Shown: piece by piece, positions 12,974-17,618 of the stretch
How positions within the stretch are numbered: position 1 is the first letter of the stretch
How the letters are laid out: each line of letters opens with the position of its first letter
Virus genome (UHGV): UHGV-0119765
Reading direction: 5' to 3' (one strand)
Length of the DNA: 26,581 bases
DNA from: a virus
Translations under genes and position numbers: made by a program
Notes under the pieces: model-generated
What the model saw: the letters and a program-made list of their open reading frames with translations, nothing else
Databases searched by the model: none
Told to the model about the DNA's origin: nothing

Positions 12974-13000
12974 GGGGAGAGTAATTGGAGGCTTTAAGAA

Positions 13001-13228
13001 ATGAGTTCGATGACTGAGCTTGTCCGCGCCGACTTTCAGGAGAACATTGGTCGTGCAAATCGGTACTGGTCTGCTTCCAGACTTCCGACTGGCGAGAGAC
13101 AGAAAAACGCCCCTAAGCCACGTATCTATCCGCGTGACCGCGTTCTTCGCCGGTTGGTTAAAATCGATAATGATTTTCAGTGTGACAGAATTATCCAGCA
13201 ATTAGATTTGATGACTGATGATGAATGA
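13001..13228 (+). CDS. Hypothetical protein (75 aa)
   Basis: ATG at 13001 with GGAGG RBS. First gene after the tR2-like terminator; no family recognised. Confidence 0.6.
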   Translation: MSSMTELVRADFQENIGRANRYWSASRLPTGERQKNAPKPRIYPRDRVLRRLVKIDNDFQCDRIIQQLDLMTDDE

Positions 13229-13643
13229 TTTCATTCTGCACGAAACCAATAAATCACAATTCTGGTTAGTTCTGAAACAAATCCTCTCTACCGGCAAACG
13301 CTGGCGAATCAAAATATCTGAGTACCGTGAGAAGCGTACATTGTCACAAAACAATCTGATGTGGGTGTGGAATGCAGAAATAGCCGCACAGTTATCTGCT
13401 GCTTCTGCTGAAAACTTCACGCCTGAAGAGGTTCATGAGTGGCTGAAAGATATATTTTGTCCGGCTAAAAGGGTGACGATTTTTAATATTACACGATGCG
13501 TTAAATCAACACGTCAGCTTGATATTGGAGATATGCACAAATATCTGACCGATATTGACCAGTGGGCGCATCAGAAGGGATTACGACTAACCATTCCTGA
13601 TAATTGCGAGTACCTGGATCTAAAGGAGAGGCAAGTAGAGTGA
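13218..13643 (+). CDS. ninB: NinB-family recombination protein
   Basis: 141 aa. The TLSQNNLMWVWNAEIA segment matches the NinB family signature (lambda NinB has SLDQNRKLWA). Position is consistent with the nin region. Confidence 0.75.
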   Translation: MMNDFILHETNKSQFWLVLKQILSTGKRWRIKISEYREKRTLSQNNLMWVWNAEIAAQLSAASAENFTPEEVHEWLKDIFCPAKRVTIFNITRCVKSTRQLDIGDMHKYLTDIDQWAHQKGLRLTIPDNCEYLDLKERQVE

Positions 13644-14167
13644 CTATCAAATCAAATACGCCGGCACACGACAAGGACTGCTGGCAAACGCCGCTTTGGC
13701 TTTTTGATGCACTGGATATTGAGTTTGGATTCTGGCTGGATTCGGCAGCGAGCGACAAAAATGCTCTGTGCGCTCACTGGCTAACTGAGGCCGACGACGC
13801 GCTCAATTCTGAGTGGGTAAGCCACGGTGCAATCTGGAATAACCCACCGTACAGCAATATCAGGCCGTGGGTGGAAAAAGCTGCTGAGCAGTGCATACAA
13901 CAGCGACAGACGGTAGTGATGCTTGTGCCAGAGGATATGTCAGTCGGATGGTTCAGCAAGGCTCTGGAGAGCGTTGACGAAGTTCGCATCATCACTGATG
14001 GACGGATTAATTTTATCGAACCATCGACGGGGCTGGAGAAGAAGGGAAACAGCAAAGGCTCCATGCTGCTGATTTGGCGACCGTTCATCAGTCCTCGACG
14101 GATGTTTACTACCGTATCCAAAGCGGCATTGATGGCGATCGGGCAGGGCGTCAGGAGGGCGACATGA
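13640..14167 (+). CDS. Phage-type DNA N6-adenine methyltransferase (Dam family)
   Basis: GTG start overlapping the ninB stop (GTGA), GGAGAG RBS 9 nt upstream. CWQTP...LF N-terminal motif and catalytic NPPY (IWNNPPYSN). Confidence 0.85.
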
Positions 14168-14346
14168 GACGACAGCGACGAAGTTTCACCGACATCATCT
14201 GCGAAAACTGCAAATACCTTCCAACGAAACGCTCCAGAAATAAACGCAAGCCAATTCCAAAAGAATCTGACGTAAAAACCTTCAACTACACGGCTCACCT
14301 GTGGGATATCCGGTGGCTAAGAAATCGTGCGAGGAATACAAGGTGA
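14164..14346 (+). CDS. ninE: NinE-like protein (60 aa)
   Basis: ATG overlaps the Dam stop (ATGA), [60 protein letters not shown] matches lambda NinE as I remember it. Confidence 0.8.
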
Positions 14347-14513
14347 TTGACCCAAATCGAAGTTACGAACAAGAAAGCGTCGAGCGGGCTTTAACGTGCG
14401 CTAATTGCGGTCAGAAGCTGCATGTGCTGGAAGTTCACGTATGTGAGCACTGCTGCGCAGAACTGATGAGCGATCCGAATAGCTCAATGTTCGAGGAAGA
14501 AGACGATGAATGA
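14343..14513 (+). CDS. ninF: NinF-like protein (56 aa)
   Basis: GTG start overlapping the ninE stop, GAGGAA RBS. Cys-rich [29 protein letters not shown] matches lambda NinF. Confidence 0.75.
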
Positions 14514-14973
14514 GTTAATAAATGGCAATGCCATCAAAATGACAAGCATTGAAATCGCTGAGTTGGTTGGTAAGCGTCATGACAATGTGAAACGTACCAT
14601 AATAAAAAACGGGATAAAGCACGATATTAAATATGAATATTATGAAAATAATCTAGGATTCAAAGTTAAGCGAGAGGTTTTTGTTGTTGATGCTGATGTT
14701 GCTAACGTGTTTAAGCATCAGAGAATAGCATTAAATAGATGTGCTGAGACAATAGCATTAACCACCATCGAACAATTACAAGGAGTTAAATTAATAAGGC
14801 AATATCCGGTTTTAGATAAATACCGCATAGATGGCTATGATCCTGTAAACAATATCGCCTATGAAATAGACGAGGAACAACATTTTGCGCCTCAGCATAT
14901 GGACGCGGATCGCATTCGCGAGGAAGAGATAAAATCGGCGTTAGGTTGTAAGTTTGTGCGCATTCGCGTTTAA
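14506..14973 (+). CDS. Moron: Rha-like N-terminal domain fused to a putative DUF559/Vsr-like (restriction-endonuclease-fold) C-terminal domain
   Basis: 155 aa, AT-rich (about 36% GC). N-terminus IKMTSIEIAELVGKRHDNVKR parallels the Rha-type N-terminus of the next gene. The C-terminal YRIDGYDPVNNIAYEIDEEQHF block fits the YR.D...IA.E.D...H pattern of DUF559/Vsr-like nuclease domains. Confidence 0.75.
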   Translation: MNELINGNAIKMTSIEIAELVGKRHDNVKRTIIKNGIKHDIKYEYYENNLGFKVKREVFVVDADVANVFKHQRIALNRCAETIALTTIEQLQGVKLIRQYPVLDKYRIDGYDPVNNIAYEIDEEQHFAPQHMDADRIREEEIKSALGCKFVRIRV

Positions 14974-15004
14974 GTGAATACAATTTGCAAACCGGAGAAT
15001 AGCA

Positions 15005-15730
15005 ATGAGTAATTTAATTTGTTTCTCTTCCGTTAAGATGACCAGTATCGAAATTGCCGAACTGGCAGAAAGCCGCCATAGCAATGTAAAAGTATCCATA
15101 GATAGATTGGTGAAACGTGGCGCTATCAAGCCTCCTGCATTGCAGCACACTAACATAATCAATGATTTAGGTGTTATTACCGGGAAGCGTGATTTCTACG
15201 TCTTCGAAGGCGAACAAGGTAAGCGCGACAGCATTATTGTCGTTGCCCAGTTGTCGCCGGAATTCACCGCTCGCCTTGTTGACCGCTGGATAGAGCTTGA
15301 AGAAGCTGCGGTTAATATCCCCAAAACGCTACCGGAAGCGTTGCGCCTTGCTGCTGACCTTGCTGAGCAGAAAATGCAACTGGAAAACCAGCTCGCAATT
15401 GCCGCACCTAAAGTTGAGTTTGCCGATCGCGTTGGCGAGGCCAGCGGAATTTTGATTGGAAACTTTGCAAAGGTTGTCGGTATTGGTCCAAACAAACTGT
15501 TTGCGTGGATGCGCGATCACAAAATCCTTATTGCTTCAGGTTCCCGGCGCAATGTGCCAATGCAGGAATATATGGATCGCGGCTATTTCACAGTGAAAGA
15601 AACAGCGGTCAACACAAATCACGGAATACAGATATCGTTCACCACAAAAATCACCGGGCGTGGTCAACAGTGGCTGACCAGAAAGCTGCTCGATAACGGA
15701 ATGCTGAAAGTAACAGGTGAGGCTGCTTAA
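15005..15730 (+). CDS. Phage antirepressor (Rha-type N-terminal domain plus KilA-C C-terminal domain)
   Basis: 241 aa, GGAG RBS. N-terminus VKMTSIEIAELAESRHSNVK; C-terminal region (FAKVVGIGPNKLFAWMRDHKILIASGSRRNVPMQEYMDRGYF) is characteristic of KilA-C antirepressors. Confidence 0.85.
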   Translation: MSNLICFSSVKMTSIEIAELAESRHSNVKVSIDRLVKRGAIKPPALQHTNIINDLGVITGKRDFYVFEGEQGKRDSIIVVAQLSPEFTARLVDRWIELEEAAVNIPKTLPEALRLAADLAEQKMQLENQLAIAAPKVEFADRVGEASGILIGNFAKVVGIGPNKLFAWMRDHKILIASGSRRNVPMQEYMDRGYFTVKETAVNTNHGIQISFTTKITGRGQQWLTRKLLDNGMLKVTGEAA

Positions 15731-16020
15731 TGGCTAATCTACGCAAAGAAGCACGCGGCAGAGAATGCCAGGTACGTATTTACGGCGTATGCAATGGCAA
15801 CCCTGAAACTACAGTTCTGGCACATTACCGGATGGCTGGAATTTGCGGAACGGGAATGAAGCCTGACGACCTGATCGGCGCATGGGCTTGTAGCGCGTGT
15901 CACGATGAAATCGACCGACGCACCCATAATCTCGACAACAAAGACGCCAGACTTTACCACCTCGAAGGCGTGATCAGGACGCAGGCGATACTGCTGAAGG
16001 AGGGGAAGATTAAGTCATGA
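15730..16020 (+). CDS. DUF1364-family nin-region protein (Cys-rich, 96 aa)
   Basis: ATG overlaps the antirepressor stop (TAATG). Cysteine pairs CQVRIYGVC ... CSACHD are typical of the DUF1364 proteins found next to rusA. Confidence 0.75.
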   Translation: MANLRKEARGRECQVRIYGVCNGNPETTVLAHYRMAGICGTGMKPDDLIGAWACSACHDEIDRRTHNLDNKDARLYHLEGVIRTQAILLKEGKIKS

Positions 16021-16379
16021 ACGAATATCAGTTTGTGCTTCCATACCCGCCGTCGGTGAACACCTACTGGCGAAGACGGGGAAGCCAATACTACATCAGC
16101 GATAAAGGCCAGAAATACCGAAAAGACGTTCAGCAAATCATCCGCCAACTCAAGTTAGACATTTTCACCAAATCACGACTCCGCATCAAAGTCATCGCAG
16201 ACGTTCCAGACTCCCGCCGCCGCGACCTCGACAACATCCTGAAAGGTTTACTCGATTCCCTTATCCACGCCGGATTTGCGGAAGACGACGAGCAATTCGA
16301 TGACATTCGCGTAATTCGTGGTGTGAAAGTACCAGGCGGACGGCTTGGAATAAAAATCACCGAACTGGAGAACGCATGA
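16017..16379 (+). CDS. rusA: Holliday junction resolvase RusA
   Basis: 120 aa; MNEYQFVLPYPPSVNTYW...DLDNILKGLLDSL is the RusA family signature. ATGA coupling to the upstream gene. Confidence 0.9.
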   Translation: MNEYQFVLPYPPSVNTYWRRRGSQYYISDKGQKYRKDVQQIIRQLKLDIFTKSRLRIKVIADVPDSRRRDLDNILKGLLDSLIHAGFAEDDEQFDDIRVIRGVKVPGGRLGIKITELENA

Positions 16380-16564
16380 ACGCCACAATTCAAACGATAC
16401 CAGAGCTTCTTATCCAGACACGAGGCAATCAGACCGAAGTGGCAAGGATGCTTTCCTGCGCAAGAGGAACAGTGCTCAAGTACAACCGAGACAGCAAAGG
16501 CGAGCGTCACGCAATAGTTAACGGCGTCCTGATGGTCAAACAGGGCAAGAGGGGAAGACGATGA
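16376..16564 (+). CDS. ninH: NinH-like protein
   Basis: 62 aa; TIPELLIQTRGNQTEVARMLSCARGTVLKYNRDSKGERHAIVNGVLMV parallels lambda NinH. ATGA coupling to rusA. Confidence 0.8.
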   Translation: MNATIQTIPELLIQTRGNQTEVARMLSCARGTVLKYNRDSKGERHAIVNGVLMVKQGKRGRR

Positions 16565-17184
16565 GACTCGAAAGCGTAGCTAAATTTCATTCGCCAAAAA
16601 GCCCAATGATGAGCGACTCACCACGGGCTACGGCTTCTGACTCTCTTTCCGGTACTGATGTGATGGCTGCTATGGGGATGGCGCAATCACAAGCCGGATT
16701 CGGTATGGCTGCATTCTGCGGTAAGCATGAACTCAGCCAGAACGACAAACAAAAGGCTATCAACTATCTGATGCAATTTGCACACAAGGTATCGGGGAAA
16801 TACCGTGGTGTGGCAAAGCTTGAAGGAAATACTAAGGCAAAGGTACTGCAAGTTCTCGCAACATTCGCTTATGCGGATTATTGCCGTAGTGCCGCGACGC
16901 CGGGCGCAAGATGCAGAGATTGCCACGGTACAGGCCGTGCGGTTGATATAGCAAAAACAGAGCAGTGGGGGAGAGTTGTCGAGAAAGAGTGCGGAAGATG
17001 CAAAGGCGTCGGCTATTCAAGGATGCCAGCAAGCGCAGCATATCGCGCTGTGACGATGCTAATACCAAACCTTACCCAACCCACCTGGTCACGCACTGTT
17101 AAGCCTCTGTATGACGCTCTGGTGGTGCAATGCCACAAAGAAGAGTCAATCGCAGACAACATTTTGAATGCGGTCACACGTTAG
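16561..17184 (+). CDS. Q: Late-gene antiterminator Q (lambda type)
   Basis: 207 aa beginning MRLESVAKFHSPKSPMMSDSPRATASD, with the zinc-binding CRDCHGTGR...CGRCKG region. Near-identical to lambda Q as I remember it. Confidence 0.95.
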   Translation: MRLESVAKFHSPKSPMMSDSPRATASDSLSGTDVMAAMGMAQSQAGFGMAAFCGKHELSQNDKQKAINYLMQFAHKVSGKYRGVAKLEGNTKAKVLQVLATFAYADYCRSAATPGARCRDCHGTGRAVDIAKTEQWGRVVEKECGRCKGVGYSRMPASAAYRAVTMLIPNLTQPTWSRTVKPLYDALVVQCHKEESIADNILNAVTR

Positions 17185-17226
17185 CAGCATGATTGCCACG
17201 GATGGCAACATATTAACGGCATGATA

Positions 17227-17255
17227 TTGACTTTTTGAATAAAGTTGGGTAAATT
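17227..17255 (+). promoter_or_regulatory. Late promoter pR' (with embedded qut region)
   Basis: -35 TTGACT (17227-17232), 17-nt spacer, -10 TAAATT (17250-17255), directly downstream of Q. The sequence closely matches the lambda pR' region. Confidence 0.75.
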
Positions 17256-17291
17256 TGACATCAACGATGGATAAATGCACTCGTTAAATAA

Positions 17292-17327
17292 AGCCCTGAG
17301 TTAATATCTCGGGGCTTTTTGCGTTTT
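17292..17327 (+). terminator. tR'-like intrinsic terminator close to pR'
   Basis: Stem AGCCCTGAG / CTCGGGGCT (one G-U pair), 7-nt loop, then TTTTTGCGTTTT, about 30-65 nt downstream of the predicted pR' start. Confidence 0.6.
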
Positions 17328-17618
17328 AAGCACGGCCTTTCTGAAAGCACATCAAACCAAATACCAGACAGACAAAAATAATCACCTTATCCGCTGTGGC
17401 TACGGTGCGGTGTGCTTTGCATAAAAGAAAACCAGCGCAATGGCTGGCTTCGTGAAAGCGGGTGGCATGAGGTTGCCCTAACAACCTCCTGCCGTTTTGC
17501 CCGTGCATATCGGTCACGAACAAATCTGATTACTAAACACAGTAGCCTGGATTTGTTCTATCAGTAATCGACCTTATTCCTAATTAAATAGAGCAAATCC
17601 CCTTATTGGGGGTAAGAC

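Follow-up and report, generated by a model that had tools for sequence, protein, structure and literature searches.

The window analysed here, the whole 26,581-nucleotide stretch of the virus genome UHGV-0119765, is a lambdoid, P22/HK620-like prophage whose closest overall matches are phages HZ41, IME10 and HK544. It carries two adjacent genes on the + strand, named here gene 1 and gene 2 (Table 1). Gene 2 corresponds to roi, a gene named in HK022, HK97, HK620 and many Shiga toxin (Stx) phages. Gene 1 appears to have been created when a rare cassette recombined into the 5′ part of roi, and its product is a predicted homing-type endonuclease. Taken as a whole, this account of the locus seems to us probable, though well short of assured. 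The gene order established with Pfam is replication gene O, DnaB-type helicase, an open reading frame (ORF) at the NinB position, Dam methyltransferase, ninE, ninF, gene 1, gene 2, ybcO (DUF1364), rusA, ninH and Q. The neighbourhood of the two genes is a classical nin region. The stop codon of ninF and the start of gene 1 overlap by 8 nucleotides (nt) (ATGAATGA), and the identical overlap joins ninF to roi in the annotation of HK97 and HK620.

At the protein level, gene 2 and HK97 Roi agree at 94.6% of 241 amino acid (aa) positions; the gene 2 DNA is 96.5% identical in nt sequence to HK97 roi from position 15035 on, and PHROG 63 is matched at 6.3e-90. A preliminary description of this DNA had assigned the protein to the KilA-C and Rha profiles. 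The first assignment holds with a wide margin (Pfam KilAC/ANT, PF03374, 113.2 bits against a cutoff of 25.3, residues 127–229, 9.5e-33), whereas the second is sub-threshold: Rha-N (PF09669) scores 22.8 bits, below the cutoff of 29.9, although the match extends over profile positions 1–91. As in HK97, the gene lies between ninF and ybcO/rusA, overlaps the next gene by 1 nt and combines Rha-N with KilAC. Identity and the ninF-roi-ybcO-rusA-ninH-Q position together mark gene 2 as the Roi of HK022 and HK97, and its function is accordingly taken, from the sequence, to be that of Roi. The proposal of a new antirepressor therefore gives way to a long-known gene. Gene 2 differs from HK97 roi in that its first ~20 codons are replaced (the protein starts with MSNLICFSSV; codons 11–21 carry 9 nt differences from HK97, synonymous except for one Val-to-Ala) and in that it has its own ribosome-binding site (RBS), whereas HK97 roi is coupled to ninF. 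The roi region is matched in ~1600 of 5426 complete E. coli genomes, and the KilAC domain at this locus sits behind Rha-N, Bro-N or ORF6N. Two papers citing Clerget & Boccard 1996 present Roi as a DNA-binding protein implicated in lytic growth (PMC3430580, PMC4587872). The term “antirepressor”, used of proteins such as P22 Ant or P1 Ant1 that bind a phage repressor and inactivate it, is a domain-derived label when applied to Roi; repressor inactivation is documented neither here nor in the accessible literature.

The sequence shows gene 1 to be a fusion, in frame, of roi codons 1–32 with a Rha-N/Vsr-like nuclease gene. Its residues 1–32 are 100% identical in aa sequence (98% in nt) to HK620 Roi, and the match of the window to the ninE-ninF-roi segment of HK620 stops abruptly past position 14600, which is roi codon 32. 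Phage records matching the region all do so in two pieces that skip ~500 bp, and the cassette is absent from HK97, HK022 and HK620. The GC content of the cassette is 0.32–0.35 against ~0.5 in its flanks. The left crossover lies after codon 32, within the motif KRHDNVKRTI, which HK620 Roi has in common with the native mEp044-like nucleases, and the right one at ~15030–15037, within the EIAEL helix. The two junctions occupy homologous sites in Rha-N coding DNA. A transposon or insertion sequence was rejected as the source of the inserted DNA: no terminal repeats or target duplication flank 14601–15034, and there is no transposase. A moron equipped with a promoter or terminator of its own was also rejected, since signals of either kind did not exceed chance level across 13000–17600.

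The preliminary description had seen here two adjacent genes that share N-terminal motifs and then continue into unrelated C-terminal domains, nuclease-like in one and KilAC in the other. Both genes are present, and their N-terminal similarity is above chance (BLASTP, 39% identity over ~70 residues, E = 7e-9), with no similarity past residue 64/70. The origin that the term tandem paralogs would imply, a local duplication, is not the one we find. Most synonymous sites in the shared stretch differ between gene 1 and gene 2, and a simple tandem duplication was rejected because the 5′ end of gene 1 is 98% identical to the HK620 roi allele whereas gene 2 is HK97-type. It would still be conceivable that the two genes act as paralogous regulators, gene 1 being a transcription factor or antirepressor partner with a non-catalytic or accessory nuclease-like domain and gene 2 an antirepressor that inactivates a heterologous repressor. 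The significant shared Rha-type N-terminus, the strong KilAC/ANT match of gene 2 and the names given to such proteins by PGAP and PHROGs (regulators or anti-repressors) are in line with this. We nevertheless find it quite improbable: a recombination junction within roi, and not duplication, accounts for the N-terminal identity, antirepressor activity of Roi has no support in the accessible literature, and further observations given below run counter to it.

The cassette resembles DNA of mEp044-like prophages. Window positions 14754–14999 are 91.5% identical to these prophages, the C-terminal domain of the mEp044 nuclease is 78.6% identical to that of gene 1, and the new N-terminus of roi resembles the MSDLMVFDGV start of mEp044-like genes. 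In mEp044 and its relatives a spacer of 32 bp separates the nuclease gene from the next one, which is either Roi-like, with Rha-N and KilAC and 37% identity to gene 2, or an unrelated ORF of 63 aa. The latter (MDLYLVVAHLKN...) replaces the Roi-like gene in four mEp044-like loci (L006, L008, L009 and L021), with the 32-bp spacer kept. The simplest history for the window is a double crossover between the nin-region roi and a two-gene unit of the mEp044-like kind (Rha-N/Vsr-like nuclease, 32-bp spacer, Roi-like). As a consequence of the double crossover, the roi start codon, the translational coupling to ninF and the helix-turn-helix (HTH) now head an intact 155-aa winged helix-turn-helix (wHTH)-nuclease protein. 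Complete but for an exchanged N-terminus, roi restarts 31 bp downstream of gene 1 with an RBS of its own.

Comparison of alleles at the mEp044-like slot gives an idea of what moves. “Empty” alleles consist of one gene (Rha-N/KilAC, Bro-N/KilAC or Rha-N/other), and “filled” alleles of a gene with Bro-N or Rha-N plus the nuclease followed by one with Rha-N plus KilAC or another domain. The movable piece thus resembles a unit made of nuclease domain, stop codon, spacer and Rha-N module, and looks like one placed at the boundary between N-module and C-module of an antirepressor-like gene. The recurrence of the nuclease gene and a Roi-like gene with a fixed spacer in mEp044-like phages, and of a Rha-nuclease pair separated by 44 bp elsewhere, means that the two genes could work together, as expected for a pair of regulators; the replacement of the Roi-like gene by the 63-aa ORF in several relatives speaks against such a partnership. 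The mEp044-like prophages also have extra HNH_3 endonuclease genes of 605 aa and 164 aa near the replication-region slot (L021–L023 1102–2919; L007 6329–6823), which suggests a region where endonuclease genes in general come to be inserted.

Table 1. Features of the gene 1–gene 2 region, with positions in the window unless a locus is given.
Feature	Position	Strand	Evidence or remark
ninF	14301..14513	+	Pfam NinF 2.1e-12
Gene 1, 155-aa chimeric protein (Rha-type winged helix, linker helix, Vsr/DUF559-like nuclease)	14506..14973	+	
Original roi 5′ end (codons 1–32, HK620 allele), now the nuclease N-terminus, both HTH helices included	14506..14600	+	97.5% nt identity to HK620 over 14200–14600
Inserted cassette, ~434 bp (remainder of nuclease gene, stop codon, spacer, replacement roi 5′ end)	14601..15034	+	Breakpoint mapping
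Nuclease core, gene 1 aa 97–155	14794..14970	+	
Invariant motif D109...E120-x-D122-E123-x-x-H126	14830–14883	+	Gene 1
31-bp spacer, GGAG at 14994–14997, 7 nt ahead of the roi ATG	14974..15004	+	Sequence; homologous 32-bp spacer in mEp044-like phages
Gene 2 (roi), 241 aa; Rha-N aa 12–100, KilAC aa 127–229	15005..15730	+	
Recoded new roi 5′ end (MSNLICFSSV...)	15005–15034	+	HK97-type sequence from 15035 on
96-bp PGAP annotations equivalent to window 14506–14601	L029 2557–2652; L030 2557–2652; L028 6057–6152		

For the 141-aa ORF at the NinB position (13218–13643), upstream of the features in Table 1, Pfam gave nothing at E ≤ 0.001. The Dam methyltransferase ORF, taken at its longest (13604–14167, TTG start), shares its first 40 nt with this ORF.

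The domains of the gene 1 protein were assigned with the help of its homologues, aligned as 38 sequences with 42–75% identity to gene 1. Gene 1 alone reaches 24.5 bits with Pfam Rha-N against the cutoff of 29.9, over profile positions 1–24 only, and has no KilAC/ANT match; the Rha NCBIfam (TIGR02681) gives 19 bits against 45.95. Among the homologues a Rha match is found in 37 of the 38 at E ≤ 0.01 (best 2.2e-15) and a DUF559 match in 32. Residues 106–155 of gene 1 match the PADLOC profile mREase_II, a methyl-directed restriction enzyme profile, at 1.3e-8. Invariant in the alignment are E81, E89, Q90, D109, G110, Y111, N116, Y119, E120, D122, E123, H126 and R138, with D135 near-invariant (at least 90% conserved). 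The AlphaFold model, with a predicted local distance difference test (pLDDT) score of 87.4, comprises a winged helix (residues 11–62), a long helix (65–92) and an alpha/beta domain (97–154) whose core matches Vsr-like nucleases in fold comparison; pLDDT is above 90 over residues 11–60, which span the fusion junction. Gene 1 as modelled thus shows the fold and the conserved residues of an active Vsr-like nuclease. We infer that it encodes a Mg-dependent, sequence-directed DNA endonuclease, in which DNA binding would fall to the winged helix and cutting to the Vsr-like domain, probably in dimeric form. Invariance of the catalytic-type residues in 38 homologues argues against a dead domain, and this counts against paralogous regulators.

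The closest relatives at the sequence level appear to be the Vsr-like domain of PvuRts1I/AbaSI and the DUF559/MTES_1575 nucleases. Gene 1 is 30% identical over 67 aligned residues to the structures 4par and 4oq2, and the spacing of its D109/E120/D122/E123/H126 is that of AbaSI D61/E72/D74/E75/H77-78, the equivalence of the residues being taken from this spacing. In AbaSI the substitutions D61A and E75A abolish activity. The gene 1 protein differs from these enzymes in that it is without the SRA-like domain that binds 5-hydroxymethylcytosine, its nuclease domain is C-terminal where theirs is N-terminal, and there is no hint of modification dependence. The second relevant system is I-Bth0305I, the prototype of EDxHD (Vsr-like) homing endonucleases, a family to which the free-standing Hef endonucleases of phages were also assigned (PMC3239194). 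It shares with gene 1 an arrangement of N-terminal DNA binder and C-terminal Vsr-like nuclease. The differences are that gene 1 has a Rha-type winged helix where I-Bth0305I has NUMOD repeats, is much smaller (145–165 aa) and is associated with no intron or intein. The link to I-Bth0305I (3r3p) is structural only, with no match in searches of PDB sequences; the candidate E-D-x-H-D residues E89, D109, D122, H126 and D135 are conserved.

The cassette is uncommon, keeps its frame intact and occurs in several prophage backgrounds. The arrangement is present in 5 of 5426 complete E. coli genomes with 99.1–99.5% identity. Three of these five genomes were inspected in detail and carry different prophages with different replication genes; the stretch shared with the window goes down to ~14371–15245. 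The 155-aa frame is intact in all three, with 0–2 aa changes, and the exact 155-aa protein is found on 152 contigs of E. coli, Salmonella Kentucky and E. ruysiae. In RefSeq/PGAP the annotation of gene 1 ends after 96 bp, labelled a pseudogene (“Rha family transcriptional regulator, incomplete”), and the nuclease part has no annotation. This corresponds to seeing gene 1 as a dead remnant, a truncated roi that reads into junk left by an old recombination, and the Pfam scores of gene 1 below cutoff would agree with it. Such an origin is very improbable in view of the open frame, present in the window and also in three further genomes with different prophage backgrounds, the occurrence of the exact protein on so many contigs, the in-frame fusion at homologous wHTH positions with high model confidence across the junction, and the membership of the C-terminal part in a conserved family (at least 1182 clusters) with all the invariant residues kept.

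Two variations downstream of the cassette were observed in individual prophages. In that of E. coli MB46 (L030 4068–4592) a 174-aa HNH endonuclease gene lies between the ybcO and rusA homologues, which is not in the window (junction near 16017) and is a further endonuclease presence/absence polymorphism in the nin region. In E. coli VTB97022v (L028 6556–7577) the roi gene downstream of the cassette ends at codon 84 and is followed by a 256-aa ORF6N/KilAC gene; its KilAC part is homologous to that of the window roi, ORF6N being a third N-module on the same C-terminal domain.

The nuclease domain of gene 1 belongs to a family of 1182 clusters (50% identity, E ≤ 1e-3), nearly always at the extreme C-terminus of proteins of 75–411 aa. 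Its N-terminal partners include Rha-N, Bro-N, AntA, KilA-N (weak), homing-endonuclease-associated repeats (PF18780, 2e-13) and weak NUMOD-like sequences; it also occurs alone. Domain shuffling, which the preliminary description had proposed, is well supported by this variety of modules ahead of the nuclease domain and by the exchange of Rha-N, Bro-N and ORF6N ahead of KilAC. One homologue, that of pEJ01, is located in the slot between gene 32 (Pfam gp32) and frd of RB49-like T4-type phages. JSE has nothing in this slot, RB49 an endonuclease of 485 aa and G2494 a 109-aa ORF; only pEJ01, among 59 closely matching RB49-like genomes, has the gene 1 homologue there. The homologue forms a clean ~430-bp insert with an early promoter on one side and the next RBS on the other. 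The sequence GTATAAT(A/G)CAC flanks the insert on both sides.

In T4-type phages the free-standing homing endonuclease genes include the seg and mob genes, and SegG adjoins gene 32. The pEJ01 homologue is similar to them in occupying a slot just downstream of gene 32 that is empty, or filled by another endonuclease, in sister phages. The catalytic fold of the gene 1 family differs from GIY-YIG and HNH. Other members of the family adjoin NinB (L025/L026) or lie close to toxin-antitoxin and transposase genes on the chromosome of Chromatium okenii. A rule by which the nuclease gene would always be linked to Rha/KilAC genes was considered and rejected, as it fails in pEJ01, Chromatium okenii and L025/L026; it applies to mEp044-like phages and to one more prophage group. 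In that group, which is from E. coli (L013–L017 2600–3983), a 160-aa nuclease gene lies 44 bp downstream of a 269–289-aa Rha-family gene and adjoins the large terminase gene, the gene order being opposite to that of the window. The homologues lacking a Rha/KilAC neighbour in pEJ01, Chromatium okenii and L025 are a further argument against paralogous regulators acting together, and so are the ~1600 genomes that have the roi sequence without the cassette.

At a fixed site, the family thus displays a presence/absence polymorphism: 5 carriers against ~1600 E. coli genomes with the roi region, and one of 59 RB49-like genomes. This sporadic, site-specific pattern is, by analogy, the one of free-standing homing endonuclease genes, and we infer that gene 1 belongs to a large family of homing-endonuclease-like selfish genes of the free-standing kind. 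If the enzyme cut a relative without the cassette, repair on the template of the cassette-bearing copy would spread the cassette. In an alternative outcome, the break would just disadvantage the rival phage.

The latter possibility is close to another explanation, in which gene 1 is a non-mobile, domesticated nuclease that serves phage-phage conflict or superinfection exclusion, its Roi-type HTH being aimed at rival lambdoid phages, or that acts on host DNA. A precedent exists in Odn (Gp88) of Vibrio phage ICP1, a chimeric nuclease whose DNA-binding domain was taken from the DNA-binding protein of its target (PMC8263062). Gene 1 and Odn are alike as chimeric phage nucleases with a borrowed DNA-binding domain that originate by shuffling of homing-endonuclease-type genes; Odn has a T5orf172/GIY-YIG-type nuclease, RepA_N and a proven target, the PLE origin, whereas gene 1 has a Vsr-like fold and the Roi HTH. 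The HTH of gene 1 is of HK620 type (KRHDNVKRTI) and that of the resident Roi of HK97 type (SRHSNVKVSI), as might suit a weapon against other phages, and the top PADLOC match is a restriction-type nuclease. A known defence system was, however, rejected, the PADLOC match being to a single domain only. Neither defence-system neighbours nor a system-level PADLOC match were found, and the gene is part of the lytic nin operon, not a lysogeny-expressed moron, without promoter or terminator signals above chance. Moreover, the pEJ01 insert occupies a slot used by other endonuclease genes, which indicates selfish mobility. We therefore consider domestication rather unlikely.

Several points weigh against the homing-type reading preferred here. 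The Pfam matches of gene 1 to nucleases are below cutoff (DUF559 19.1 bits against 20.6; MTES_1575 18.8 against 38.2), the Foldseek E-values to nuclease structures are weak, and neither the family profile nor the isolated nuclease domain found a significant relative among PDB sequences, so that the Vsr-like link rests on Pfam, PADLOC and the fold comparison. The chimeric N-terminal domain, with helices from Roi and the wing from the donor, could be impaired, and PGAP treats the start of gene 1 as a pseudogene. Members of the family are not always beside Rha or Roi genes, and no single target gene is therefore implied. Ordinary lambdoid mosaic recombination would also yield the same patchy distribution. 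We put forward the homing step as a hypothesis because such recombination between Rha-N modules yields the same junctions.

A more specific form of the homing-type reading, which we regard as improbable, is that the nuclease is a homing endonuclease using the DNA-binding domain of its own target gene, roi. Roi is reportedly able to bind a site within roi itself; a text search for a statement that Roi binds within roi gave no match. If Roi does bind there, the nuclease may be directed to cassette-free roi, since the recognition-helix motif KRHDNVKRTI is found both in gene 1, as the HK620-type Roi HTH, and in the native mEp044-like nucleases. The enzyme would then be delivered to a cassette-free roi of HK620 type and cut it, and the cassette would be copied in with the two flanking Rha-N coding segments as homology arms. 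Rather than sheltering in an intron or intein, such a system would leave the host gene functional while taking over its start and HTH. The recoded N-terminus with an HK97-type recognition helix could make the carrier immune.

Roi itself is ordinary, and the notable part of the locus is the upstream gene 1, a mis-annotated wHTH/Vsr-like nuclease cassette that splits and rebuilds roi. Members of its family are found in databases as “Rha family transcriptional regulator”, “hypothetical protein” or pseudogene, and a literature search on Rha plus DUF559 returned a single paper, on another matter, and no experimental study of the nuclease family. The family is large (the cluster count above being a lower bound) and made of small phage proteins in which a Vsr-like nuclease is joined to interchangeable DNA-binding modules of antirepressor-like proteins. 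The cassette shows a tidy way of entering a coding region without destroying the gene, in that recombination in a shared N-module splits the gene and then rebuilds it. Should these proteins prove to be nucleases active in homing or exclusion, the known types of homing endonucleases would gain a compact wHTH-Vsr architecture, and the proteins would help to explain the mosaic junctions in antirepressor-like genes of temperate phages, including the Stx phages that carry roi.

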